Source: a virus. Taken from it: a stretch of DNA of 64,000 nt. The notes below the pieces were generated by a model. That model had not been told where the DNA came from, did no database searches, and saw only the letters and a program-made list of their open reading frames with translations. Position numbers and translations under genes: made by a program. Location: IMG/VR virus record IMGVR_UViG_3300037755_000476; one strand, given 5' to 3'. Positions 1 through 11,704 of this stretch are shown one piece after another; the stretch's first letter is position 1; each line of letters opens with the position of its first letter.

Positions 1-299
1 AAGGGCTTTGCCCCCTTCCCTGCGGAATTACAGGATAATTAAAGGTTTTAACGCCTTCCATACCTATAGAGTTTATAACGCTTGTTTGCGCTAGGTAAGA
101 TTGCAGTATTTCAATGAACTTGTATTGATTCGTCCAACACTTGCGATTTTGCTCGGTGTTATGCAGACCCTAGCGGTTACTTGTACATGACCTACTTTAT
201 TCGGGTTGCACTTTCACGTTATGCTAGCTATACACATACGCCTGTTTTATAATATCGCTTGTAAAGAACGTGTTGTACAGCGATTCGCCAACAACACCC

Positions 300-307
300 C
301 AAACATA
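300..307 (-). promoter_or_regulatory. Bacteroidota -7 promoter box (TATGTTTG), pointing out of the window
   Basis: Reverse complement of caaacata matches TAnnTTTG. Confidence 0.5.
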
Positions 308-984
308 CGGCAACTTTCCCGAAAAACAATAAAAAAATCGATGAAATGCAGGAAAATCCGATGAAATGTAGTCAAAGGGCGACTTAAGGATGCATGATGC
401 GGGAGCGGGCGGGCGTGGTAATATACTCCCGTGTACAGGCTGGGATACTACTTACGTGCGTATGCGGGAATATAGCCACGATAGGGGCAGGTCATGGCGT
501 TGGTAGATTGTGCCGGGGTGGGTCAAGGCCATCATAGACAGAATCTATAGCAGCAATAACTGCCCATAGACAAAACACATAGAAGGGCAATTTCCTACCC
601 TAATAAAGTTAGTTAAATACCTGTTTAACACACTTTACTTATACATAAACAAGCTATAAAAAACTGGCACAAGGATACACAAGGTATTCGTATAAGCTAT
701 TGGAACACAGATAGTTAGGCCATAGAAAAGCTAAAACTTTTGACAGAAAAATATCAGAACGTACCCCCGCCCCCTCGCAGAAATTCGATTTCCTTTTCGG
801 CCGCGAGCCCTTAAAATATACTATGACTTAAAGCGGTTTAAGCGAAATATCTCTGTGAATTTTTGAAAAATCATGCAAGTTTTAACATTCTTTAACAATG
901 ACGGATTTTATACCGAATTTTTGACCTAAAAATAGACCCAAAAACAGTTCTATTTTAATCTTTTTAAAAATAATTTGATATGAG

Positions 985-1020
985 TTTGGTTTGTATTATA
1001 ATTTTACTTATATTTGTACC
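985..1020 (+). promoter_or_regulatory. Bacteroidota sigmaA promoter for tRNA block 1 (36-bp element identical to 5001-5036)
   Basis: TTTG 985-988, 20-nt spacer, TATATTTG 1009-1016; exact copy at 5001-5036. Confidence 0.85.
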
Positions 1021-1046
1021 TGAACGATTAAAAAGAAACATTTTCA

Positions 1047-1127
1047 ATGTACTCAACAGTCATCATAGCGACAGTAATCAGAACCGGAGGTAAGGATAAA
1101 CCCTCGGGGAGGATTTTTATGCTGTAA
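1047..1127 (+). CDS. Leader peptide 1 (MYSTVIIATVIRTGGKDKPSGRIFML), putative attenuator
   Basis: 26-aa ORF between promoter and terminator; codons ACA, GTA, ATC, ATA, AGA, GGA, GAT, ATG match block 1 tRNAs. Confidence 0.8.
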   Translation: MYSTVIIATVIRTGGKDKPSGRIFML

Positions 1128-1153
1128 TGTCGATAGTACATTAAATTACACAT

Positions 1154-1186
1154 AAACCTTCTCCCTAAAAAGAGAGGGTTTTTTAT
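1154..1186 (+). terminator. Intrinsic terminator/attenuator 1
   Basis: Stem aaaccttctc/gagagggttt followed by a T run. Confidence 0.85.
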
Positions 1187-1276
1187 TGGCCTGTTAGTCT
1201 AGCTGACGAAAACTTGCCTAATAATAAGCCTTCCAACTAATAATCGCTATTATAAGCAGATTTAAGAGTACAATAT

Positions 1277-1450
1277 ATGAGCAGAACGTACAGAAAAAGT
1301 AGAAACGGCTTAAAATTTAGAGAAGGAAGGTATGTCGAAGGAGTTTTTTATAAGTGCCGGTGTGAATATTGTACTGGAATAGATAAGAAGATTCTTGAGG
1401 ATAAAATCCTTGACAAGGAAATGAAACAGGAGTGTAGCTTAATTGGTTAA
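1277..1450 (+). CDS. Small basic protein with CxCxxC (MSRTYRK..., 57 aa)
   Basis: Manually translated ORF; 3' end overlaps tRNA-Ile. Confidence 0.5.
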   Translation: MSRTYRKSRNGLKFREGRYVEGVFYKCRCEYCTGIDKKILEDKILDKEMKQECSLIG

Positions 1451-1501
1451 AGTACTCAGCTGATACCTGAGTGAGTGCAAGTTCGAATCTTGCCACTCCT
1501 A
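1428..1501 (+). tRNA. tRNA-Ile(GAU)
   Basis: Cloverleaf; anticodon arm ctcag-ctGATac-ctgag; TTCGAAT T-loop. Confidence 0.92.
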
Positions 1502-1507
1502 CATAAT

Positions 1508-1586
1508 GCAGAATTCGCATAGTCCGGTCGATTGCGCCTACCTTCCGAGCAGGATATCATCGTGGGTTCAAATCCCACATTCTGCT
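1508..1586 (+). tRNA. tRNA-Gly(UCC)
   Basis: Acceptor gcagaat/attctgc; loop ctTCCga; U73. Confidence 0.88.
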
Positions 1587-1599
1587 CTAATTAAAACAC

Positions 1600-1673
1600 T
1601 GCGGGGTGGACTGGAGAGGCTCCAGCTCAGTCTCATAAGCTGAATGACGTGGGTTCGATTCCCACTCCCGCAA
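1600..1673 (+). tRNA. tRNA with CAU anticodon (elongator Met or Ile2)
   Basis: tcagt-ctCATaa-gctga; lacks the three G-C pairs typical of initiator tRNA. Confidence 0.85.
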
Positions 1674-1690
1674 CTAACAAAACATTAAAT

Positions 1691-2053
1691 ATGAGTGAAA
1701 TAGAAGAAGAGTTAAGAGAATGTAAAACACACGGCCTTGTTTTATATAAAAAATATAGCGAAAGCGAAAATAAAAACGAGTATTCTTTCCGTTGTATGAA
1801 ATGTAGGTCTGAGTATTTAAAGAAAAAATATCAAGAGAGAAAGAAAAGAGCAATTGACTATAAAGGAGGAAAATGTTGTAAATGCGGATATAATAAATGC
1901 GACGCCGCTTTAGAGTTTCATCACTTAGACCCCTTTTCTAAAGACATAACGCCCTCAAAAACTTTAAATAGAAGTTGGGACAACTGTAAAAAAGAGTTAG
2001 ATAAATGTATATTAGTTTGCTCTAATTGTCACAGGGAAATACATAATAGATAG
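1691..2053 (+). CDS. HNH endonuclease with Zn fingers inside tRNA block 1
   Basis: CxxC pairs, LEFHH, CxNCHxEIH; ATG at 1691 (the longer ORF call overlaps a tRNA). Confidence 0.88.
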   Translation: MSEIEEELRECKTHGLVLYKKYSESENKNEYSFRCMKCRSEYLKKKYQERKKRAIDYKGGKCCKCGYNKCDAALEFHHLDPFSKDITPSKTLNRSWDNCKKELDKCILVCSNCHREIHNR

Positions 2054-2118
2054 TGTAGCTTAAAGGTAAAGTGCTTGTCTGTCACACAAGAGAACGGGGG
2101 TCAGTACCCCTACTAGCT
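2049..2118 (+). tRNA. tRNA-Asp(GUC), degenerate
   Basis: cttgt-ctGTCac-acaag; aberrant T-loop (gtcagta), acceptor mismatch; overlaps the HNH stop codon. Confidence 0.65.
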
Positions 2119-2163
2119 GCGAGTTTTTTGGAAGTGCTCTGAACTATATCAAAACTTCCGCAT

Positions 2164-2237
2164 GCTTCTCTGGCTGAATAGGAAATGGCACCTCACTTGT
2201 AATGAGGAGGATACGGGTTCGATTCCTGTGGGGAGCT
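2164..2237 (+). tRNA. tRNA-Thr(UGU)
   Basis: cctca-ctTGTaa-tgagg; TTCGATT T-loop. Confidence 0.92.
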
Positions 2238-2238
2238 C

Positions 2239-2343
2239 AACAGTACCTGAGGCACCTCTCTTTAAGAAGTGTCCCAGCTCAGGTCTTTTGTTTTAACAGT
2301 ACCCGAGCCACCTCTAGTCAGTATCTAAGTGCCCGGGTCTTTT
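2239..2343 (+). ncRNA. Two tandem copies of an unknown hairpin RNA motif (2239-2289, 2295-2343)
   Basis: Shared AACAGTACCYGAGSCACCTCT..AAGTG..GGTCTTTT with compensatory stem changes. Confidence 0.55.
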
Positions 2344-2399
2344 CCAAGGGAGTCAACTACGTGCGTTTTAAAACACAAGCTTAAAGGGCTCCCTTTTTT

Positions 2400-2472
2400 G
2401 CCCCTTTCGTCTAGCGGCTAAGGCTCTTGTTTTACATGCAAGCAATCGTAGGTTCGAGTCCTACAGGGGGTA
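2400..2472 (+). tRNA. tRNA-Val(UAC), irregular anticodon loop
   Basis: gcccctt/agggggt acceptor; cttg-ttTACatg-caag (8-nt loop); TTCGAGT T-loop. Confidence 0.75.
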
Positions 2473-2481
2473 CTAAAATAT

Positions 2482-2561
2482 GCAGGGGTAGCCACAGCAA
2501 TCTTCTAAATTGCTAAGTGTAATCGGAGCTGAAAATGTGGGTTCGAATCCCCCTCCCTGTT
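2482..2561 (+). tRNA. D-armless tRNA-Arg(UCU)-like RNA with long variable region
   Basis: gcagggg/tccctgt acceptor; only 7 nt before a 6-bp stem agcaat-ctTCTaa-attgct; 22-nt variable region; TTCGAAT T-loop. Confidence 0.65.
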
Positions 2562-2566
2562 CAAAT

Positions 2567-2636
2567 TGGGGTAAGCCTAGGTAGGTTAGCGGACCTTATA
2601 TGTCCGTGGGGACGGGTTCGATTCCCTCTACCCCAA
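2567..2636 (+). tRNA. tRNA-Ile(UAU)-like RNA with minimal D-arm
   Basis: tggggta/tacccca acceptor; cggac-ctTATat-gtccg; bulged T-stem. Confidence 0.6.
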
Positions 2637-2640
2637 CAAA

Positions 2641-2672
2641 TTTGGTAGTTACAAAAGAATTTCGTATCTTTG
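2641..2672 (+). promoter_or_regulatory. Bacteroidota promoter
   Basis: TTTG...TATCTTTG, 3 nt before ATG 2676. Confidence 0.75.
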
Positions 2673-2675
2673 ACC

Positions 2676-2960
2676 ATGACGGATTTTATACCTAAAAAGA
2701 CCCAACAGGAGATACACGAAATCAACTTCCAGAACGCCGAGGAGCTGTTACTGTACCACAAGTACCTGTACTACGAGCTCTCCAAGCCGATGGTAACCGA
2801 CCAACACTTCGACCAGCTCGACCAATATGCAAGAAGACTTTCCCAGTACGTATGCCCCAAGCGCTTTCCACCGGAGGAATACGTACACGAGACAATGGTC
2901 GGCTTTGATAAAAATCACCGGTTGTGGCCGAAAGTGAAAGAGAGATTTGGAATAAAATAA
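2676..2960 (+). CDS. Stand-alone NAD-dependent DNA ligase domain Ia-like protein
   Basis: HKYLYYELSKPMVTDQHFDQL resembles the LigA Ia motif (H-YY...P-ISD-EYD-L); no ligase core follows. Confidence 0.65.
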   Translation: MTDFIPKKTQQEIHEINFQNAEELLLYHKYLYYELSKPMVTDQHFDQLDQYARRLSQYVCPKRFPPEEYVHETMVGFDKNHRLWPKVKERFGIK

Positions 2961-2976
2961 AAAAATTGTATAAAAG

Positions 2977-3007
2977 TTTGTAGGTATCAAAAAAAGTTGT
3001 ATATTAG
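2977..3007 (+). promoter_or_regulatory. Promoter for tRNA block 2
   Basis: TTTG 2977-2980, 19-nt spacer, TATATTAG (variant -7 box). Confidence 0.7.
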
Positions 3008-3011
3008 CAGC

Positions 3012-3101
3012 ATGAAAACATTAAGCACATATAATTCCTTTTGGTATTCGAATTGCTCCGGCAATGTTGAAGGGGATTCCTATGTCTACAAACTCATATA
3101 A
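3012..3101 (+). CDS. Leader peptide 2 (MKTLSTYNSFWYSNCSGNVEGDSYVYKLI), putative attenuator
   Basis: 29-aa ORF; core NSFWYSNCS matches block 2 tRNAs (Ser x2, Asn, Trp, Phe, Cys). Confidence 0.82.
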   Translation: MKTLSTYNSFWYSNCSGNVEGDSYVYKLI

Positions 3102-3131
3102 CTATTTTCGTTTTTTGATTTTGATTCATTT

Positions 3132-3161
3132 AACCCTTCGTCTCCAAACGAGGGGTTTTTT
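3132..3161 (+). terminator. Intrinsic terminator/attenuator 2
   Basis: Stem aacccttcg/cgaggggtt plus T run. Confidence 0.88.
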
Positions 3162-3171
3162 GTTTTTATAC

Positions 3172-3255
3172 TGCAACGTAAAGCCAGTGGTTCTGGCAGA
3201 CTGTCTCTAAAACAGTTATTGTAAAAGGGGAGTGGTTCGATTCCGCACGGTGCAA
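3172..3255 (+). tRNA. Amber suppressor tRNA (anticodon CUA), type II-like
   Basis: actgt-ctCTAaa-acagt (anticodon 3207-3209); D-stem gccag/ctggc; long variable region; A73. Confidence 0.8.
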
Positions 3256-3259
3256 CAAT

Positions 3260-3344
3260 TAGTGGGTAGCGCAAAGGTTGCGAACGGGATTTGAACCCCC
3301 GGCTATCGGGTGACTGGTAAGGGTTCGATTCCTTTACCCACTAC
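3260..3344 (+). tRNA. tRNA-Ser(UGA)
   Basis: Loop ttTGAac; paired long variable arm; acceptor+T helix can be 13 bp. Confidence 0.75.
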
Positions 3345-3348
3345 AAAC

Positions 3349-3435
3349 AGAGGGGTGGCAGAGAGGCTTATTGCAGCAGGTTGCTAACTTGCCGAGGTAT
3401 AAACACTTCCGAGGGTTCAAATCCCTTCCCCTCTT
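3349..3435 (+). tRNA. tRNA-Ser(GCU)
   Basis: gcagg-ttGCTaa-cttgc; long variable arm. Confidence 0.92.
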
Positions 3436-3441
3436 CTAAAC

Positions 3442-3527
3442 GACTAGGTTGCCGTAGTGGCCGAACGGTCTGGGCTGTTAACCCAGTGGATAATATCCCA
3501 TCGTAGGTTCGAATCCTACCCTAGTCG
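3442..3527 (+). tRNA. tRNA-Asn(GUU) with long variable arm
   Basis: ctggg-ctGTTaa-cccag; variable arm tggataatatccca; G73. Confidence 0.88.
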
Positions 3528-3535
3528 CTTAAAAT

Positions 3536-3608
3536 GCTTCTCAGCACAATGGTGTGCAGCCGGTCTCCAAAACCGTGCAAGGGCAAGGTTCGATTCCTTG
3601 GGGTCGCG
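3536..3608 (+). tRNA. tRNA-Trp(CCA), mismatched acceptor stem
   Basis: cggt-ctCCAaa-accg; D-stem gcac/gtgc; T-arm intact. Confidence 0.75.
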
Positions 3609-3611
3609 CAG

Positions 3612-3719
3612 ATAAAAACAAGCTTATGCCGTGAAACGGTGTGATGGTCGCTGGATGAAAGCAACGCACTTAATGACCGTGCCCAAAATTGATAAAATTT
3701 CCAGATGCTTGTTTTTTAT
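3612..3719 (+). ncRNA. Unknown structured (possibly pseudoknotted) RNA between tRNA-Trp and tRNA-Phe
   Basis: Closing stem aaaaacaagc/gcttgttttt, GAAA-capped hairpin, ggtc/gacc, gcac/gtgc and ctgga/tccag pairings. Confidence 0.5.
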
Positions 3720-3793
3720 GGGGTTGTAGCTGAGGTGGTAATTAGCGCTGGGCTGAAAACTCAGAGACGGGGGTTCGAATCCCCCCTCCCCCA
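3720..3793 (+). tRNA. tRNA-Phe(GAA)
   Basis: ctggg-ctGAAaa-ctcag; two acceptor mismatches. Confidence 0.82.
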
Positions 3794-3847
3794 CTAAGAG
3801 TTGAAGGGGTATAAAAACAGTTCAACTCTTTTTCGTATATTTGTTAT

Positions 3848-4273
3848 ATGAAAATATGCACAACTTGTAATCAAAGTAAAACACTAGATAATTTTGATTT
3901 TAGAAATAAGGCTAAAAATAAAAGACGAGGCTCTTGTAAAAAGTGTCTTAAAGAGTATTACAGACTAAGGTATAAGAAAGTAGGTAAAGTAAAAGAACAA
4001 ATAAATGCGAGGGGTAAAAGGTGGAGAGAGTATTTATACAAGTTTGTAAATAGATATAAAAGATTGGTTGGGTGCTCTAAGTGTAAAGATAAGAGAGATT
4101 ATGTATTAGAATTTCATCACGTCAGGGATAAGAAAACAGAAATCTGTAGAGCTATATCTAGAGATTTCTCTATGTCTAACCTTAAAGAGGAGATGAGAAA
4201 GTGTGTAGTACTCTGCGCAAATTGCCACAAAGAGCTTCATTATCTAGAACGTTGCGGTACTCAAGAGGATTAG
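3848..4273 (+). CDS. HNH endonuclease with Zn fingers inside tRNA block 2
   Basis: CTTC/CKKC, LEFHH, LCANCHKELH; own TATATTTG promoter at 3836-3843. Confidence 0.88.
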   Translation: MKICTTCNQSKTLDNFDFRNKAKNKRRGSCKKCLKEYYRLRYKKVGKVKEQINARGKRWREYLYKFVNRYKRLVGCSKCKDKRDYVLEFHHVRDKKTEICRAISRDFSMSNLKEEMRKCVVLCANCHKELHYLERCGTQED

Positions 4274-4324
4274 GGGAACTGGCTACAAACTTGTTATTCG
4301 GAGGTTAAAGTCCTGTACGAAATT
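4251..4324 (+). pseudogene. Degenerate tRNA-Cys-like gene (loop ctACAaa)
   Basis: tactcaagagg D-region typical of Cys/Tyr tRNAs; weak acceptor and T stems; overlaps the HNH 3' end. Confidence 0.5.
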
Positions 4325-4395
4325 CTATAGCTTATGCCCCAATTCCATTTAAATTCTTTTTTGTACCTTTACAACTTAACATTAAAAATGTAACA

Positions 4396-4725
4396 ATGGC
4401 AAGAAGAACAACAAAAAACGGGCCGGGGGACAAGGACAAGAAAAAAAAATCCACCTCCAAAGCTAACGACACGATAAGCCCGTACTACGCAGCGGTAAAA
4501 TATGGAAGCTCTCTCGAAAAGAATGCGGCCAAGAAGTCCATGGCAGGATACTTCTCCGGCTCCCCTGCCAACAAAAGAGGAGAGTCCGAGAGCCAGCACA
4601 TGTCCAGAATGGCCAAAAAAGATACTATCCCCAGTGCCAGAAAAGCGAGGGGGGTATATCAGGCAGGTAACTTTGGTCCCAGCATCGGCAAAAAAGCATC
4701 CTCAACCGTAAAAAAGAAAAAGTAA
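4396..4725 (+). CDS. Lys-rich basic protein, unknown function
   Basis: 109-aa ORF with AT-rich upstream region. Confidence 0.65.
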   Translation: MARRTTKNGPGDKDKKKKSTSKANDTISPYYAAVKYGSSLEKNAAKKSMAGYFSGSPANKRGESESQHMSRMAKKDTIPSARKARGVYQAGNFGPSIGKKASSTVKKKK

Positions 4726-4726
4726 T

Positions 4727-4999
4727 ATGAAAAATCTATTCTTAGGACTTGCACTATTGATTTCGTCTATAGTGTTCTCACAGGAGCCCGTTCTGGACAG
4801 CATACAAGTTTTTAAACCTATGCCGGAGCCTGTACTGATAGCCACTATATACGAATACGAAACGTTCTTCGAGAAACTTACAGAAGTGTCCGACAGGACA
4901 GGTGCCAATGAGGTTATCTGCGTATTTTTCTACAAAGAGGATAAAGACTCTCCCCAAAAAACTCTGGTAAAAACTTTTATTAGAAAAAAACAACGATAA
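4727..4999 (+). CDS. Hypothetical exported protein
   Basis: N-terminal signal peptide MKNLFLGLALLISSIVFSQ. Confidence 0.65.
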   Translation: MKNLFLGLALLISSIVFSQEPVLDSIQVFKPMPEPVLIATIYEYETFFEKLTEVSDRTGANEVICVFFYKEDKDSPQKTLVKTFIRKKQR

Positions 5000-5000
5000 A

Positions 5001-5036
5001 TTTGGTTTGTATTATAATTTTACTTATATTTGTACC
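5001..5036 (+). promoter_or_regulatory. Promoter for tRNA block 3 (identical to 985-1020)
   Basis: TTTG...TATATTTG 5025-5032; exact 36-bp repeat. Confidence 0.85.
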
Positions 5037-5039
5037 ATC

Positions 5040-5117
5040 ATGAAAACAACACGATTTGTTGCGGTACGCAACTTACATACACAGCTACTAGAGCAACCGG
5101 AAATAATCGTCTGGTAG
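5040..5117 (+). CDS. Leader peptide 3 (MKTTRFVAVRNLHTQLLEQPEIIVW), putative attenuator
   Basis: 25-aa ORF; core RNLHTQLLEQPE matches block 3 tRNAs (Pro, Glu, Gln, His, Leu-UAG, Arg-ACG). Confidence 0.85.
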   Translation: MKTTRFVAVRNLHTQLLEQPEIIVW

Positions 5118-5159
5118 GGATAGGTATGGTGTGATGTAAGAAACTTATATTATCGTATT

Positions 5160-5194
5160 AAGCCTCCCCGGAAACGTGGGGGCTTTTTTATTTT
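5160..5194 (+). terminator. Intrinsic terminator/attenuator 3
   Basis: aagcctcc..gaaa..gggggctt plus T run, directly before tRNA-Pro. Confidence 0.88.
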
Positions 5195-5268
5195 AGGGGA
5201 GTGACAAAATTGGTGACGTGCCGGCCTTGGAAGCCGGAGATATGTAGGTTCGAGGCCTACCTCCCCTA
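5195..5268 (+). tRNA. tRNA-Pro(UGG)
   Basis: ccggc-ctTGGaa-gccgg. Confidence 0.9.
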
Positions 5269-5316
5269 CAAAGAGACGTTTGGCCGTTTAACTCTTTAAA
5301 AAACAATGGCCCTAAT

Positions 5317-5389
5317 GCTACCATCGTCTAAATGGTCAGGACACAAGACTTTCAATCTTGAAATCGGGTTTCGATTACCCGTGGTAGTA
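5317..5389 (+). tRNA. tRNA-Glu(UUC)
   Basis: caaga-ctTTCaa-tcttg. Confidence 0.92.
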
Positions 5390-5399
5390 CGAATATAAT

Positions 5400-5470
5400 T
5401 GGAGTATGATGTAGTGGTAACATGGTTGGTTTTGAGCCAACTCTCGGAGGTTCGACCCCTTCTGCTCCAA
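5400..5470 (+). tRNA. tRNA-Gln(UUG)
   Basis: gttgg-ttTTGag-ccaac; U1-A72 acceptor. Confidence 0.9.
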
Positions 5471-5477
5471 CTAACAT

Positions 5478-5551
5478 GGTGTCATTGTTGTAAACGGTGA
5501 GCATAGTAGGTTGTGACCTTGCAGGTCTCGGTTCGAATCCGAGGTGACACA
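5478..5551 (+). tRNA. tRNA-His(GUG)
   Basis: gtagg-ttGTGac-cttgc; G-1 encoded. Confidence 0.9.
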
Positions 5552-5558
5552 CATATTT

Positions 5559-5640
5559 ACCGGAGTGACGTAAAAGCGAATGGCAGAGTATCTTGGCTTA
5601 GACCCAAGGGTTTTTGTGGGTTCGAGTCCCACCTCCGGTA
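5559..5640 (+). tRNA. tRNA-Leu(UAG), expanded D-region and short variable loop
   Basis: cttgg-ctTAGac-ccaag; accggag/ctccggt acceptor. Confidence 0.82.
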
Positions 5641-5645
5641 CAAAT

Positions 5646-5716
5646 ACGCCCGTAGTTCAGCGGAAGAATACCAAGCTACGAACTTGGAGACGGGGTTTCG
5701 AATACTCCCGGGCGTT
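5646..5716 (+). tRNA. tRNA-Arg(ACG)
   Basis: ccaag-ctACGaa-cttgg. Confidence 0.92.
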
Positions 5717-5854
5717 CTATACCAATTTCGTACTATTGGGCGTCTTGAAAGAGAGGGCGTCCTTTATCTTTGAATCCTTCCTTCTGTACAGCCTCGCTAC
5801 CTTTTTATTGGGGTCGGAGGCCTTTTCCGATATTTTATGTTTTCTGTAGTTCAT
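5717..5854 (-). CDS. Small basic protein (MNYRKHKIS...KIKDALSFKTPNSTKLV, 45 aa), convergent on tRNA block 3
   Basis: Manual translation; stop codon abuts the tRNA-Arg 3' end. Confidence 0.5.
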   Translation of the reverse strand: MNYRKHKISEKASDPNKKVARLYRRKDSKIKDALSFKTPNSTKLV

Positions 5855-5891
5855 AGTTGCAAGGTAATGATTTTTTTGTTATATTGTATTC

Positions 5892-6386
5892 ATGATAAAA
5901 GGATTTATATTACTCGCCCTTACACTGACCGTCTTCGGTTTCACCTTCGACCACGGCCCCATTAACTACGTCCAAGAACAAAAGATGGGAAGGCCCCACG
6001 TAGAGGCTCGACTACTGAAATACTTTAATGAGCTGGACTCTATCTACGTCTCCAAAGGCATCGTAATAGGCTACTCCAAGGTATCCAGCATACAGAGTAT
6101 GGACTCACTCCCGTACGACCCGGTGTTGCAAGGAAAGTCTTTGGAAGGCCTGTATAATAAGCACACAAATCAAGTGTACATAAACACCTATCAATTGGAT
6201 GCCTTTTTTAAGGGCAAGTACAAAGAGAAGATTTTGCTTATAATGGCACATGAGGTAGGCCACTCACAAGGTATGGGCCACTCTAATGACACCACTTCCA
6301 TAATGCACTACAGTAGTAAGTACGTTTTGGCCCTGCTGGATAACAATAAAATTGAGGACCTTGTGAGCGAGATGTATTTAAATTGA
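5892..6386 (+). CDS. Secreted matrixin/metzincin-type zinc metalloprotease
   Basis: HEVGHSQGMGH (HExxHxxGxxH), Met-turn SIMH, signal peptide. Confidence 0.85.
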   Translation: MIKGFILLALTLTVFGFTFDHGPINYVQEQKMGRPHVEARLLKYFNELDSIYVSKGIVIGYSKVSSIQSMDSLPYDPVLQGKSLEGLYNKHTNQVYINTYQLDAFFKGKYKEKILLIMAHEVGHSQGMGHSNDTTSIMHYSSKYVLALLDNNKIEDLVSEMYLN

Positions 6387-6492
6387 CATTTTTAGCCTTT
6401 GATATCTTCGGCCCAAATTATTTATACTATTCCTTCTCTTCAAAGTTCTACCCCTCTTCGGGGGGGAGGTTCTATAAGTATTACTTATGTAG

Positions 6493-6552
6493 TAAGTAAC
6501 TACTATATAAGTACCTATTAAATATTTACTACTTTATTAAGTAACTACTATA
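6493..6552. repeat. 15-bp direct repeat TAAGTAACTACTATA x2 in an AT-rich non-coding tract
   Basis: Copies at 6493-6507 and 6538-6552. Confidence 0.7.
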
Positions 6553-7084
6553 ATAGTATTGAAACGATATCTAACGGGGAACGCTACGCTTTAAACAAAA
6601 ATAAGGGTTTTCCTTATATTGCTTTGTCGTAACGCTCGTTCATTTGTCTTGAAACTGACTCTGAACGGGTGTGGGTATATCTCCCAAGGGTGTTTAGTCC
6701 TCTACCTCCCTGTTGCTAACACTAACACGACCCCCGCGGGCCCAAAGATGCTTGGCCCCCGTCAACTGGCCCCATGCTACAAGGAATACTTGTTTTAAGA
6801 CGGTCGGATACTTCGGGCAGTCCTACTACCTCTTTCTCCTTGTTCCCCTAGCTTTTTAAGTGGTCTGGGTAAATTGTCACTCCGTAATGTCAATAAGTAC
6901 AAATATACAAAAAATATTCTAATCACCAAACAATACCACCATTATTTTTATAAAAAATTCACAGTCCCTCATAACTCCCTGATTTACTGCACGATAAAAA
7001 ATAATTTAAAAATAATTACCATAAAGTTTGTTGAAACCGATTATTTGTTCTATATTTGCTGTGAACGAAAATAGAAGAGAGGTA

Positions 7085-7222
7085 TGAAACTAATAATAAT
7101 GGCCCCCACAGTAGACCTTTACCTCCGACAGGGCCTTGCCCACGAGCTTAGGGACATGGAGCTCGGGAGCTCGGCAGTGGTTGCCAAACTAACATATTTG
7201 TTAATAGAGTTCAAGAACTAAT
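7085..7222 (+). CDS. Small hypothetical protein (MKLIIMAPT..., 45 aa)
   Basis: ORF downstream of the promoter at 7027-7058. Confidence 0.4.
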
Positions 7223-7242
7223 GATTATAAGTTTTAAAATAA

Positions 7243-7968
7243 ATGAATTTCAATATGTATAAAGATAAAAAATTTATAGGTTATGTACGTGCCAGTACCG
7301 AGTCTCAAAGGGGGGGTATTGGATTGGAGGTCCAAAGGGAGTCCATTAATAAGTTTATAGCTCAGTATGGGGGAACAGTCGTGGCTATAGAGGAAGAAAT
7401 AATCTCCGGAGGAGCGGCAGTTCGGGACGGATTTGACCGTGCCCTGCAACTCTGTAAGTTCCACGGAGCTGTACTTATCGTCCACCGTATCGACAGGCTG
7501 TCCCGCGCCGGCTTCATGACCATAGCGAGGCTGGACGAAGAAGGCATCCCTTTTATTGAAGCCGACTCCCCTCACGATACCACCTTCTCAAAACACATCA
7601 AGTTCCTAGTCGCCAAGGAAGAGAAGGATAAGACAAGGCAGCGTGTAAAGGATGCTTTGGGACAAATTAAGGGAAATATCAATAGGGACGGTTTTCACAT
7701 CACTAAGGAAGGCAAAAGGATAACGTCCTTAGGTAATCCCCAGAACCTCTCGGATGAGGCTAGGGAGCGTTCCAAGAGGACTAGGAGGGCCAAGGCCATA
7801 GCCGACCAGAACAACGTCAGGGCGTACGCTATGGCGTCTAGGATGAGGTCGGAAAACTCTTTGAAGCAGATTGCGGATGCGTTGAACAAAGGGGGCTTTA
7901 AGACTTCAAGGGGAAACAGGTTTTACCCCATTCAGGTGTCCAATCTTATAGACCTGTACGAGAAATGA
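7243..7968 (+). CDS. Serine recombinase (resolvase catalytic domain plus short Recombinase domain)
   Basis: GYVRAST..Q, LIVHRIDRLSR, SLKQIADALN..GFKTSRG. Confidence 0.9.
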   Translation: MNFNMYKDKKFIGYVRASTESQRGGIGLEVQRESINKFIAQYGGTVVAIEEEIISGGAAVRDGFDRALQLCKFHGAVLIVHRIDRLSRAGFMTIARLDEEGIPFIEADSPHDTTFSKHIKFLVAKEEKDKTRQRVKDALGQIKGNINRDGFHITKEGKRITSLGNPQNLSDEARERSKRTRRAKAIADQNNVRAYAMASRMRSENSLKQIADALNKGGFKTSRGNRFYPIQVSNLIDLYEK

Positions 7969-8168
7969 GGGTAGATAGGTACACACTTGACGAATTTTCG
8001 TCCGCGTTCATGGAGGCTCTTGAGGAGGTGACCAGTTTTGAGGACGGGCAGGACTTTATAGATTACTCTTTGGACATAGTGTCAAGGGCCAAGGAAAAGC
8101 TTGCCCGTGGGTCAGCGGACGGTCTTGGCAGAATATGCCGGGGTGGGGCCGGAAAGACGGAAGTATAA
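7965..8168 (+). CDS. Hypothetical protein
   Basis: ATGA overlap with the recombinase stop. Confidence 0.55.
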   Translation: MRVDRYTLDEFSSAFMEALEEVTSFEDGQDFIDYSLDIVSRAKEKLARGSADGLGRICRGGAGKTEV

Positions 8169-8826: not shown

Positions 8827-9369
8827 ATGGCAAAAGGAATAGCGGCATTGGCCTATCTACCACAAGTGGATTTAGTACTTCCGACAGGTAACGCGGCAGC
8901 GTCCGTAGAGGCGTTCAGGGGGCTGGCCAACAAGATTGCGCAGTTCCAGTCCGAATCAAGGGCTGACGGGACGTACAACGCGGAAGTGGCGGTAGGGAAC
9001 AACCCCTTTGATAAATCCGTATGGAACATAGTAATCTCCGGTTCAGGGGAGACCTATACATGTACGTTCGTATCCGAGGTATCCAGTCAAGACTTGGGAG
9101 TGGGGCTTGCTGCCCTGTCAACAAGACGTGCAGTTGATATCTTAAAGACCAGCACAGTTAATAACTGTACCATGAGGTCTTTCTTGGCAGTGCTCAGTTT
9201 TATCGAGCAAGTAGAGGACAGGGTGGCCAAATCAGGTTCGGGAGCTACCGGTGACGCTACGTATACAGCAGTTCCTGTAAGGGGCTCCACTCCTTTCAAA
9301 ACATACGAATGGACCGTTGTTAAACTAGCGGACCTGTACACACTAACAACAACAGCAAACTCAAACTAA
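8827..9369 (+). CDS. Probable virion structural protein, paralog of 9371-10225
   Basis: Shared ALxYLP..., PF..xWxV and YTLT motifs; promoter at 8792-8799. Confidence 0.6.
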   Translation: MAKGIAALAYLPQVDLVLPTGNAAASVEAFRGLANKIAQFQSESRADGTYNAEVAVGNNPFDKSVWNIVISGSGETYTCTFVSEVSSQDLGVGLAALSTRRAVDILKTSTVNNCTMRSFLAVLSFIEQVEDRVAKSGSGATGDATYTAVPVRGSTPFKTYEWTVVKLADLYTLTTTANSN

Positions 9370-9370
9370 G

Positions 9371-10225
9371 ATGGCACTAAAACAAAATGCACTGACCTAC
9401 TTACCGGCCATAAACATAGAAGCCCCTTCCGGTGATTCCGTGGCGATAGAGAGCCTTAAAGGCGCACTTTATAAAATTGCAGAGATGCAGAAGGATGAGG
9501 TTGCGGACGGGGCCTATACCAATGTAAAAGGGGCTTCCGCAGACCCGTTCAACAGCTCTTTATGGGATGTGACTATAGATACCGGAACCTACACACTGGC
9601 ATTCGTATCCGAGATAATTACACCCAATTCCGGACTATATAAAAATCCGGCCCTATCGGCCAGAAGGCCTTTGGATATTGAAATAGTTGCAAATGCAAAT
9701 GCCCACACCGTCAGGTCGGCCCTAGCTGCACTTAAGTTCGTGGACAAGTTGGAGGACATAGCAGCCGTTTCTGGATTCGCCTCTGGGACAGTTACACTGG
9801 CCACAGCTTTGGCCGACGACACTGTTACCATAAACGGATTGGTCTATACCGCAGTTACTGGGGCTAAGGCAGATAATACGGAATTTTCAATAGACGGTAC
9901 CGATACTGTGGATGCGGCCGATTTAGCCGACTCTATAAACAATGATGATAGAGAGGGTACTCTAGGGGACGTATCGGCAACCTCAGCACTTGGAGTGGTT
10001 ACAATCACTACTACCGTATCTGGCGAGGCCGGCAATGCCGTAACTTTGGCAGAAGATACCGGCGACACTACTATCTCCGTATCCGGGGCTACCCTTACAG
10101 GCGGAGGTGGCGACGCAGTATACACAGACGTAACGTTAAAGGGCTTCACTCCCTTCGAAACATTTGTATGGGACATCGAAAAGGCCGGGGACGTATACAC
10201 ACTGACCCCTACCGCAGATTCCTAA
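9371..10225 (+). CDS. Probable virion structural protein with an inserted T/G/A-rich beta domain
   Basis: Paralog of upstream gene; insert TVTINGLVYT...ATLTGGG resembles phage fibre/sheath-type domains. Confidence 0.6.
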   Translation: MALKQNALTYLPAINIEAPSGDSVAIESLKGALYKIAEMQKDEVADGAYTNVKGASADPFNSSLWDVTIDTGTYTLAFVSEIITPNSGLYKNPALSARRPLDIEIVANANAHTVRSALAALKFVDKLEDIAAVSGFASGTVTLATALADDTVTINGLVYTAVTGAKADNTEFSIDGTDTVDAADLADSINNDDREGTLGDVSATSALGVVTITTTVSGEAGNAVTLAEDTGDTTISVSGATLTGGGGDAVYTDVTLKGFTPFETFVWDIEKAGDVYTLTPTADS

Positions 10226-10256
10226 TCTATTTTTAAACTTACTATTTATTTTTTAC

Positions 10257-10289
10257 AAAGCCTCCGATATAAACGGGGGCTTTTTATTT
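10257..10289 (+). terminator. Intrinsic terminator
   Basis: aaagcctcc/gggggcttt plus T run. Confidence 0.8.
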
Positions 10290-10324
10290 GGAGGTTATAA
10301 ATATTTTTACTATCTTCGCATGAA

Positions 10325-10879
10325 ATGGAACTGGAAGATAGGCTTAATAAAAGAAGGAGGTACGAAGGGTTCATACACGAAAGTGTGGAGAAGGATATTT
10401 TATTTAAAAGGATGCCGTTAAAAAAACAAAAAGCTTACAAGCAAAAGGTAAGGGTCTCTAACATGGAGTACAACTTTTTGCAGTACCTGCCATTAATAAA
10501 GTTTTGGGCTAAAAGGAACTATAGTATTACCTCGAGAAACCTAGACATACTTTTCTACCTGTACCCCCTTCACATATTTACGGCAGGGCAGTTTAATAGG
10601 GCATTGAAGGAGATGGGAGTAAACGAGTACAGTCTTTTAAGGAAGATTAAGGAGGATGGCTGGGTGTCCCTGTGGAACAAAAGCGGGTCGAAGAGCTATT
10701 ACGTACTTAGTCATAAAGGCAACGAGCTTGTGAAGAAGATACACAGGATGTGCATGTTGGAAGAGGAGATACCGATGAGTGATAGGAGGAATGTAATAGT
10801 GAGGAGTAGGAGCAAGAGGGACCAGCAGTTGGTAGATTTGTTTAAAGTGTTTAACGAAAAGGTAAGGAACAGCGGTTAA
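10325..10879 (+). CDS. Hypothetical protein, possible winged-helix
   Basis: YYVLSHKGNELV resembles a wHTH wing motif. Confidence 0.6.
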   Translation: MELEDRLNKRRRYEGFIHESVEKDILFKRMPLKKQKAYKQKVRVSNMEYNFLQYLPLIKFWAKRNYSITSRNLDILFYLYPLHIFTAGQFNRALKEMGVNEYSLLRKIKEDGWVSLWNKSGSKSYYVLSHKGNELVKKIHRMCMLEEEIPMSDRRNVIVRSRSKRDQQLVDLFKVFNEKVRNSG

Positions 10880-10888
10880 ATAATCAAT

Positions 10889-11062
10889 ATGGAAAAAATG
10901 AAAGGATTTGGAAAGCAGTACGTAATGAATTTAGAGGAAGGTAAAGAAGGTCCGGATGGAATAATTCCAATCGATTGGAATGAGCTGGACGACCCCAACC
11001 TTTTTCCAAAAAGCGAAGGGATTATCGGAATTTCTCCGCCCTCGTACACAGCAACGAATTGA
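10889..11062 (+). CDS. Small acidic hypothetical protein (57 aa)
   Basis: Manual translation. Confidence 0.45.
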   Translation: MEKMKGFGKQYVMNLEEGKEGPDGIIPIDWNELDDPNLFPKSEGIIGISPPSYTATN

Positions 11063-11155
11063 CCGAGCCTCAGCGAAGGTCATTGTACGGGTACGAAGTA
11101 ATAATTACCAAAGGGGGTCTTTTAGATTCCCTTTTTTTATTGTATATTTGTAACC

Positions 11156-11704
11156 ATGGAATCAGTATATTACTTATACAGGCACATAAGAAAAGATACA
11201 GGAAAACCTTTTTATATAGGAGTAGGCACTGAGCCCAAAACTAACACGAGATTGTATAGTACTTTATATGCCAGAGCATTCTCTACTAGGCAAAGAGGCC
11301 GACATTGGGAAAATATTTATAAAAAGTGCGGAAGGGATGTAGAGATAATGTACGAAACTTGCTGTAAAGAAGAGATAATAGAAAAAGAAAAAGAATTTAT
11401 AAGCTTGTACGGATTATCTTTCGAAGGAGGATTATTGTGTAACTATGCAAGGGGAGGTCAGGGTATTGGGGGAAGATATATGTCAAAAGAGACTAAGCGG
11501 AAGATAGGAGAAGCTCAAAGAGGGGGTAAAAATCGTGCAGCTATAAAAGTAGTTAATGTAAAGACAGGAGAGTGTTATAACTCTATTATAGAGGCTTTTT
11601 ACACTACAGAGGGATTTAGCTACGCACACTTTAAGAAAATGTTAAAAGGAACAAGAACTAATAAAACAGATTTTATATATGGCCCCCCCAAAAAAGAAAA
11701 TTAA
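11156..11704 (+). CDS. GIY-YIG-like homing endonuclease with NUMOD3/NUMOD1-like tail
   Basis: YYLYRH..KPFYIG..RA; MSKETKRKIGEAQ; own promoter at 11143-11150. Confidence 0.8.
   Translation: MESVYYLYRHIRKDTGKPFYIGVGTEPKTNTRLYSTLYARAFSTRQRGRHWENIYKKCGRDVEIMYETCCKEEIIEKEKEFISLYGLSFEGGLLCNYARGGQGIGGRYMSKETKRKIGEAQRGGKNRAAIKVVNVKTGECYNSIIEAFYTTEGFSYAHFKKMLKGTRTNKTDFIYGPPKKEN

Follow-up and report, generated by a model that had tools for sequence, protein, structure and literature searches.

A putative leader-peptide attenuator ahead of a tRNA gene block in a Callevirus-like phage

Why would a phage place an intrinsic terminator between a promoter and its own tRNA genes? The 64,000-nucleotide stretch of viral DNA analyzed here (IMG/VR record IMGVR_UViG_3300037755_000476, hereafter the window) raises this question in its first 6 kb, where at least 16 tRNA genes lie on the + strand, or about 21 when a relaxed ARAGORN threshold is combined with Rfam. 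By DNA similarity the window is a Callevirus-like phage near the Cellulophaga phages phi38:1, phi40:1 and Calle (Pervagoviridae, Callevirus); it is a marine Flavobacteriia phage. The tRNA genes of this phage group form three blocks that jointly serve all 20 amino acids. Upstream of each block we found a promoter of the Bacteroidota type, a short open reading frame (ORF) of 21-30 codons and an intrinsic terminator. The leader elements preceding blocks 1, 2 and 3 are called E1, E2 and E3, and at E1 the order is promoter, ORF, terminator, tRNA block. We propose, with a probability of about 0.75, that 1047-1184 is a ribosome-mediated (leader-peptide) transcription attenuator controlling the phage tRNA block, a reading that comparative evidence and modeled folding support. 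Translation of the ORF and the exact nature of the signal are the least certain parts of this proposal.

Leader codons and the tRNA genes behind them

The E1 region of the window is composed of the following parts.
985-1016, + strand: promoter, with TTTG at 985-988 (also 990-993), a 20 nt spacer and TAtaTTTG at 1009-1016
1047-1127, + strand: leader 1 ORF, 26 codons, ATG at 1047, TAA at 1125-1127, MYSTVIIATVIRTGGKDKPSGRIFML
1056-1100, + strand: sensor run, 15 consecutive codons, T V I I A T V I R T G G K D K
1154-1184, + strand: terminator, 10-bp stem 1154-1163/1172-1181, 8-nt loop, T run 1179-1184
1428-2637, + strand: block 1 of the window, with Ile-GAT, Gly-TCC, Met, Asp-GTC, Thr-TGT, Val-TAC, Arg-TCT and Ile-TAT

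Across the phage group, the blocks have the following gene content.
Block 1: (Ala-TGC), Lys, Ile-GAT, Gly, Met, Asp, Thr, Val, Arg-TCT, Ile-TAT
Block 2: Tyr, Ser-TGA, Ser-GCT, Asn, Trp, Phe, Cys
Block 3: Pro, Glu, Gln, His, Leu-TAG, Leu-TAA, Arg-ACG

Further relatives were traced in IMG/VR and metagenomes via the neighbouring serine recombinase and DNA patterns. They comprise L007, which is near-identical to the window, a single lineage made up of L004, L005, L014 and L015, and the phages L013, L016, L018 and L010. Phage phi38:1 entered the comparison as L006, and the unclassified Maribacter phage Panino (L020) carries the same elements as the window in another order. Overall, 23 elements were examined over the three classes, and E1 is represented by six lineages (the window, L016, L004, L013, phi38:1 and Panino). 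A blastn search with 900-1300 against the phage collection gave no match at the default threshold, a relaxed search with the Panino element retrieved solely the Panino element itself and the protein whose gene separates blocks 2 and 3 had no tblastn match.

Attenuator-like paralogues of E1 lie in the window at 3012-3161 (before block 2) and 5040-5189 (before block 3); the ORF of the latter ends TGG TAG. In Panino, an E3-like leader with terminator (4815-4945) is located upstream of a Pro-to-Arg tRNA block and an E1-like leader with terminator (5835-5955) upstream of an Ala-to-Met tRNA block. The block order is thus reversed there, and the context differs as well, the elements being located behind DNA polymerase and DNA transfer genes. 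The E1-like leader of Panino begins 8 nt past a small membrane-protein-like ORF.

Every codon of the sensor run (codons 4-18) specifies an amino acid served by block-1 tRNAs, and the run takes in codons for both Ile tRNAs (ATC, ATA) as well as Arg-AGA. Over the whole leader, ACA is read by Thr-TGT, GTA by Val-TAC, ATC and ATT by Ile-GAT, ATA by Ile-TAT, AGA and AGG by Arg-TCT, GGA and GGG by Gly-TCC, GAT by Asp-GTC and ATG by the Met tRNA. A cognate leader codon is therefore present for 8 of the 8 tRNAs in block 1 of the window. Host tRNAs decode the same leader codons, which counts against the attenuator reading.

The run is the longest block-1 run among the 854 small ORFs of the window (15 codons vs 11 for the next), and leaders 1 and 2 each rank first of the 854 for their own block. 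In leader 2 of the window, 10 successive codons match block 2 (Y N S F W Y S N C S). Leader 3 matches block 3 at 10 of 12 codons (R N L H T Q L L E Q P E), the longest run being 7; it is not the top ORF for block 3 in the window, but 13 successive codons match in the phi38:1 orthologue. In simulations that drew on the codon usage of the phage itself, the p-values were 3.6e-4, 1.5e-5 and 6e-4 for leaders 1, 2 and 3 (runs of 15, 10 and 7). The combined p for the three window leaders is 1.2e-9 and that of four other lineages ranges from 1e-9 to 8e-13; these lineages are related and hence are no independent trials, though their peptides differ while the block composition is kept. Taken alone, the E1 run is statistically the weakest of the three because block 1 amino acids account for 53% of the phage codons and are encoded essentially by codons starting with a purine.

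Orthologues of the E1 ORF, 24-26 codons long, are present in L007, L016, L004, L013, phi38:1, Calle_1 and Panino. The length differences between lineages (26, 25, 24) are whole codons, and by hand count the stop codon invariably follows the first base of the G run at a distance of 19 nt. Six sequences begin with ATG and one lineage with GTG, and all end in TAA. A Val to Ala exchange is all that distinguishes leader 1 of the window from leader 1 of L007. Among the lineages the E1 peptides diverge and the block composition is retained: in the five lineages with 25-26 codons, that is with Panino left unaligned, 29 of 30 residue states of the aligned run fall within block 1 (hand count). Two antisense frames are likewise open across the leader stretch, so the openness of the ORF proves nothing by itself. 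No Shine-Dalgarno sequence precedes the leader ORF.

Leader 1 also holds GCG (Ala) and AAG/AAA (Lys), for which the window carries no tRNAs, and no tRNA is detectable at 1187-1427 of the window. In L016 and Panino, Ala(TGC) and Lys(TTT) lie directly behind the homologous terminator; they are annotated in Panino, and the Ala-TGC of L016 scores 25 bits in Rfam, under threshold. Lys is found directly behind the homologous terminator in L004, L013, phi38:1 and Calle_1 as well. Directly 3' of the terminator ARAGORN calls an atypical tRNA-like stretch in L004, phi38:1 and Calle_1, and a TGC (Ala) anticodon loop can be seen by eye in the post-terminator stretch of L004, L013 and phi38:1; Rfam did not detect the Ala-like stretch of phi38:1. 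As relatives keep both genes right behind the homologous terminator, the suspicion voiced in the preliminary description, that the window has lost its Ala and Lys tRNAs, is borne out. The small ORF at 1277-1450 of the window, for which Pfam returned no family, has its counterpart between Lys and Ile in L016. Losses are not restricted to the window: L007 is devoid of Asp, Thr, Val and Arg-TCT tRNAs. The leader codons are kept in both phages despite these losses, showing that leader content does not follow recent losses.

Several tRNA genes of the window are peculiar. Arg-TCT (2476-2563) is atypical at 88 nt, orthologues having 71-72 nt; the gene is found only by relaxed ARAGORN and reaches 28.9 bits in Rfam, just below threshold. 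An origin of Ile-TAT from Arg-TCT by anticodon change was rejected, both tRNAs being present side by side. HNH-like ORFs are inserted at 1649-2053 (inside block 1) and 3848-4273 (inside block 2). Both display Cys pairs and the 'EFHH ... C.NCH' motif typical of HNH homing endonucleases, and Pfam at E 0.01 gave no match for either. The tRNA content varies among close relatives around these insertions. In block 2, the tRNA at 3172-3256 (anticodon CTA) is the orthologue of tRNA-Tyr(GTA), the first gene of the block in relatives, and is almost identical to the phi38:1 copy. As GTA to CTA is a single-base change in the anticodon of this orthologue, the gene is a Tyr-derived amber suppressor. At this place L007 has a normal, rather different tRNA-Tyr, though its three leaders are near-identical to those of the window. 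Relaxed ARAGORN also calls a tRNA-Cys-like gene with anticodon ACA at 4251-4325 of the window, overlapping the end of the HNH-like ORF; in relatives Cys-GCA directly follows Phe, and the call may represent a displaced or decaying copy or may be false.

Pairings of the antiterminator strand

The positions that the preliminary description had assigned to the ORF, to aaaccctc (1098-1105), to ggggagg (1106-1112) and to the terminator arms and T run all proved correct on reading. The E1 terminator was also found by a pattern scan (10 pairs) and folds alone at -12.4 kcal/mol with a z of -3.2. A terminator is present in 23 of 23 elements examined, at -11 to -19 kcal/mol. The structures that compete with it are formed by the following segments.
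1098-1113, + strand: antiterminator strand, AAACCCUC GGGGAGGA
1116-1156, + strand: antiterminator inner stem, 1116-1121 and 1123-1128 with 1145-1156 in the fold of 1096-1186
1084-1108, + strand: P1 hairpin, 1084-1090 (codons Thr-Gly-Gly) with 1101-1108, -8.5 kcal/mol

The antiterminator strand pairs through its G-rich 3' part, 1106-1113, with the 5' arm and first loop bases of the terminator (1159-1166) over 8 bp at -12.0 kcal/mol, an energy equalled by 2.7% of shuffles. The pairing of G-rich segment and 5' arm that had been postulated for E1 hence exists; the register originally proposed, 1106-1112/1157-1163, is a valid alternative by hand count, the best register being 1106-1113/1159-1166. 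Overlooked at that time was the complementarity of 1098-1105 to the 3' arm of the terminator (1174-1181). Because of this second pairing, the strand 1098-1113, when free, sequesters both terminator arms. A single long hairpin then forms from the region 1096-1186, at -30.4 kcal/mol (z -5.2, with 0 of 200 shuffles as good), compared with -12.4 kcal/mol for the terminator, and the unconstrained fold likewise yields a long hairpin sequestering both arms. As the stop codon lies inside the inner stem, a terminating ribosome melts this stem.

The design is shared by relatives. In all six E1 lineages the antiterminator folds at -21 to -30.5 kcal/mol with z from -2.4 to -6.0, both terminator arms are paired with a segment whose first base lies 19 nt ahead of the stop, and inner stems equivalent to that of the window are present in 5 of the 5 other lineages. 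The architecture in which the G-rich segment competes for the terminator arm is common to six E1 lineages and to two paralogous elements. In E2, changes in the antiterminator segment are matched by changes in the terminator arm, as seen from the pairs GAAGGGG/CCCTTC, GAAGAGG/CCTCTTC and TCGAGAGG/CCTCTTGG. In E3 of the window the antiterminator is weak (z -0.5).

One element of the original model did not hold. The hairpin between 1098-1105 and 1106-1112, put forward as the alternative to pairing of the G-rich segment with the terminator arm, cannot form since the two strands are adjacent and leave no loop; the best local fold has 4 bp at -3.9 kcal/mol (z 0.06). We instead regard P1 as a candidate anti-antiterminator that may play this part by tying up the 5' portion of the antiterminator strand when no ribosome is present. 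All relatives retain P1 (94% of cells paired over 7 sequences, one compensatory A-U/G-C pair), and its energy is no better than that of shuffled sequence. In the ribosome-free fold, termination is brought about by a helix between 1046-1053, around the start codon, and 1135-1142. This long-range helix is poorly conserved and was dropped as a part to rely on, only 62% of its cells being paired.

To place ribosomes on the leader, we modeled each as 29 unpaired nt, comprising the first A-site base together with the 15 nt preceding and the 13 nt following it. When the hairpin of the window was transcribed in full, the probability of the terminator was 0.0 for A-site codons 1-16 and above 0.9 with the A-site on codons 17-27, through the stop; it was 0.95 without a ribosome. 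Constrained folding hereby reproduces both ribosome positions of the original proposal: a stall in the Thr/Val/Ile/Arg/Gly codons frees the G-rich segment and blocks the terminator, as found for codons 1-16, and a ribosome further on or at the stop allows termination, as found from codon 17. The masked folds of L016 behave in the same way. In phi38:1 and Calle_1 the terminator probability stays low over most of codons 1-14, dropping to about 0 for codons 9-13; switching in L004 and L013 is confined to an interval around codons 10-13.

When the RNA was truncated ahead of the 3' arm, 7 of 7 E1 elements had the 5' arm paired upstream (P 0.7-1.0) as long as the ribosome stood no further than the end of the codon run. 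Just past the run this pre-pairing falls to about 0-0.2, rising again to as much as about 0.6 near the stop in some E1 lineages. The fall occurs in the same place in 13 of the 16 E2 and E3 elements (to 0.1-0.6) and a few codons earlier in E2 of the window; in the near-identical E3 copies of the window and L007 pre-pairing is lost only near the stop. Altogether, 21 of 23 elements show the fall (to 0-0.6) at or within a few codons of the run end. The modeled switch point thus coincides with the end of the sensor run in most elements, which an attenuator demands and which the definitions of the parts do not force.

Under equilibrium masking, E2 and E3 fold as terminators at every ribosome position. 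As a test of the switch this approach had no effect for these two classes, for which switching is seen only in the fold before the 3' arm, and the switch there has to be kinetic. The E. coli trp attenuator likewise prefers the terminator at equilibrium, and a kinetic choice is not unusual. Overall, the parts, the alternative pairings, their conservation and the codon-to-tRNA match are found in silico.

Promoters, expression and the signal sensed

The E1 promoter follows the TTTG/TAnnTTTG consensus, which we take to be that of Bacteroides and Flavobacterium promoters. Its transcript would start near 1023, about 25 nt ahead of the leader ORF. The first 8 kb of the + strand contain four full matches to TTTG-N(15-23)-TAnnTTTG, at 1009 (E1), 2665 (directly after block 1), 5025 (E3) and 7051. 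Between 1187 and 2640, that is from the E1 terminator to the end of block 1, the + strand has no full promoter consensus. Expression of the block-1 tRNAs therefore plausibly depends on readthrough of the terminator, judging from promoter motifs. The stretch 961-1020 is repeated near-identically at 4977-5036, upstream of leader 3. The surroundings contain a further repeat, 29 nt long and direct (889-917 and 2667-2695), with 90% identity. Shortly before the E1 promoter, the beginning of ORF 2670-2960, which encodes a DNA-ligase-like Nlig-Ia domain, is thereby present in a degraded copy. This copy is a trace of rearrangement around the tRNA region.

Contigs from RNA libraries of phi38:1 infections include the homologous leader, and some cross the terminator into the tRNA side. 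In one library, two 60-nt contigs lie within leader 1 (phi38:1 2842-2932) with a word depth of about 9,000-11,600 compared with about 1,200-3,000 for flanking contigs, that is about 8 times. Contig breaks at 2825 of phi38:1 stem from the repeated promoter. Support for expression from this phage is weak because these data consist of contigs only, which show neither RNA ends nor levels and may reflect DNA carry-over; the deep leader contigs fit an abundant or stable short terminated leader RNA and are suggestive at best.

On the attenuator reading, transcription would begin at the promoter at 985-1016 and a ribosome would translate the 26-codon leader as RNA polymerase proceeds; we infer the translation of the ORF, its coupling to transcription and the physiological signal. 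Codons 4-18 would sample nearly every downstream tRNA (Thr, Val, both Ile, Arg-AGA, Gly, Asp) and also Ala and Lys, the tRNAs of which are still encoded in relatives. Slow decoding at any of these codons would hold the ribosome upstream of 1098-1113, and the free strand would pair with both terminator arms, allowing polymerase to read through into the tRNA genes. With fast decoding, the ribosome would cover 1098-1128 and the stop codon, the terminator at 1154-1184 would form and transcription would end. The net effect would be a feedback matching tRNA output to decoding demand. Since the leader is written almost entirely in codons read by the block and is followed by a switchable terminator, the phage probably makes the block tRNAs only when its ribosomes run short of them.

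The signal could also be a general one, with the same translation-driven attenuator responding to ribosome availability, elongation rate or amino-acid starvation via uncharged tRNA. We consider this improbable. The structural switch does answer to any slowing of the ribosome, half of all codons fall in block 1 and the leader codons outlast the loss of matching tRNA genes, all of which fits a general sensor. Such a sensor, however, would have no need for three leaders that are each restricted to their block and maintained through sequence turnover, and the runs of Trp, Cys, Tyr, Asn, Phe and Ser codons in E2 would be hard to explain.

It is quite unlikely that E1 is an independent small gene, equipped with a promoter and a terminator of its own and giving rise to a micropeptide or to a small RNA of about 160 nt, and that the pairings are incidental; the tRNAs would then, just as doubtfully, be expressed by constitutive leak or from other starts. 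A short transcript is indeed flanked by promoter and terminator, overlapping 'hypothetical proteins' are annotated in phi38:1 and Panino, and in one RNA library the word depth of the leader contigs is about 8 times that of their flanks, yet abundant terminated leader RNA is equally predicted by attenuation. The peptide sequence, moreover, is poorly conserved while block composition is kept, pairing between the terminator and the stretch immediately behind the codon run is seen in 21 of the 23 elements (this pairing is weak in the remaining 2, the near-identical E3 copies of the window and L007) and the tRNA block has no internal promoter consensus. A chance ORF before an ordinary leaky terminator, its run reflecting purine-first periodicity or local base composition, is highly unlikely: block 1 does consist almost entirely of A- or G-starting codons, antisense frames are open as well and the E1 run alone has a p of only about 4e-4, but the correspondence recurs in blocks 2 and 3, whose base composition differs, and across six or more lineages, the ORFs keep their start, stop and frame and vary in length by whole codons, and the antiterminator has a z of -5.2.

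Returning to the leader-peptide attenuator, we tentatively consider a broader role, namely that the three attenuators form a demand sensor for the complete tRNA set carried by the phage and possibly a built-in counter-defence circuit. Each leader would check every tRNA species of its own block, codon by codon, and loss of any one species would switch the replacement genes on. Such loss might come from host shut-off, from a codon-usage mismatch or from host anticodon nucleases acting as phage defence. If this were true, tRNA genes would join the targets of attenuation as a new class.

The control of amino-acid biosynthetic and related genes by leader-peptide attenuation is a textbook case. In this phage the loop appears to be closed on the tRNAs themselves, as the sensor codons are read by the products of the controlled genes. 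If real, the system would explain how phages dose large tRNA sets and would allow functional phage tRNA operons and their promoters to be recognized from sequence only. It would also mean that ribosome-coupled attenuation works in Bacteroidota hosts in which initiation is not led by a Shine-Dalgarno sequence, and would provide compact natural parts that report decoding speed for a chosen codon set. Phages phi38:1 and Calle are cultured with Cellulophaga hosts, making the idea directly testable.

Comparison with known leader regulators

Rfam yielded no T-box match in 1-8000 of the window or in the relatives searched, and none of its leader families (Trp_leader, His_leader, Thr_leader, Leu_leader, Phe_leader) was found in 1-8000 of the window at E up to 1. 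A sub-threshold Phe_leader match in L016 (2103-2178; 26.2 bits vs a gathering score of 55, E 0.048) spans the antiterminator and terminator part of the E1 orthologue. Full-text searches of a literature library turned up no account of attenuators before tRNA genes, an absence that is no proof of novelty.

As in the T-box riboswitches of Firmicutes, tRNA status would set the choice between terminator and antiterminator in a 5' leader. A T-box, however, binds one uncharged tRNA directly via a specifier codon and a conserved T-box sequence, independently of translation, and is 200-300 nt long, whereas the phage element spans about 160 nt and contains an ORF of many different codons.

Classic leader-peptide attenuators are trpL, hisL, pheL and leuL. 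Multivalent examples are known from enterobacteria, the ilvGMEDA leader sensing Ile, Val and Leu and the thr leader Thr and Ile. These two are the closest to the phage element, which shares with enterobacterial leaders an ORF of about 15-30 codons that lies near the promoter and includes a run of control codons, an intrinsic terminator ahead of the regulated genes and an antiterminator strand at the 3' end of the ORF, where the position of the ribosome decides. As in the ilv and thr leaders, several amino acids would be sensed by one leader. The two kinds of leader also differ. The genes regulated here would be tRNA genes rather than biosynthetic enzymes. The phage leader samples about 10 tRNA species, mostly 1-2 times each, whereas enterobacterial leaders repeat one or two codons, and its antiterminator strand pairs with both terminator arms, unlike theirs. 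The phage element also belongs to a Bacteroidota host group, with a TTTG/TAnnTTTG promoter and an ORF that starts without a Shine-Dalgarno sequence. Finally, in contrast to the enterobacterial leaders, it is phage-borne, and its three paralogous copies divide all 20 amino acids among them.
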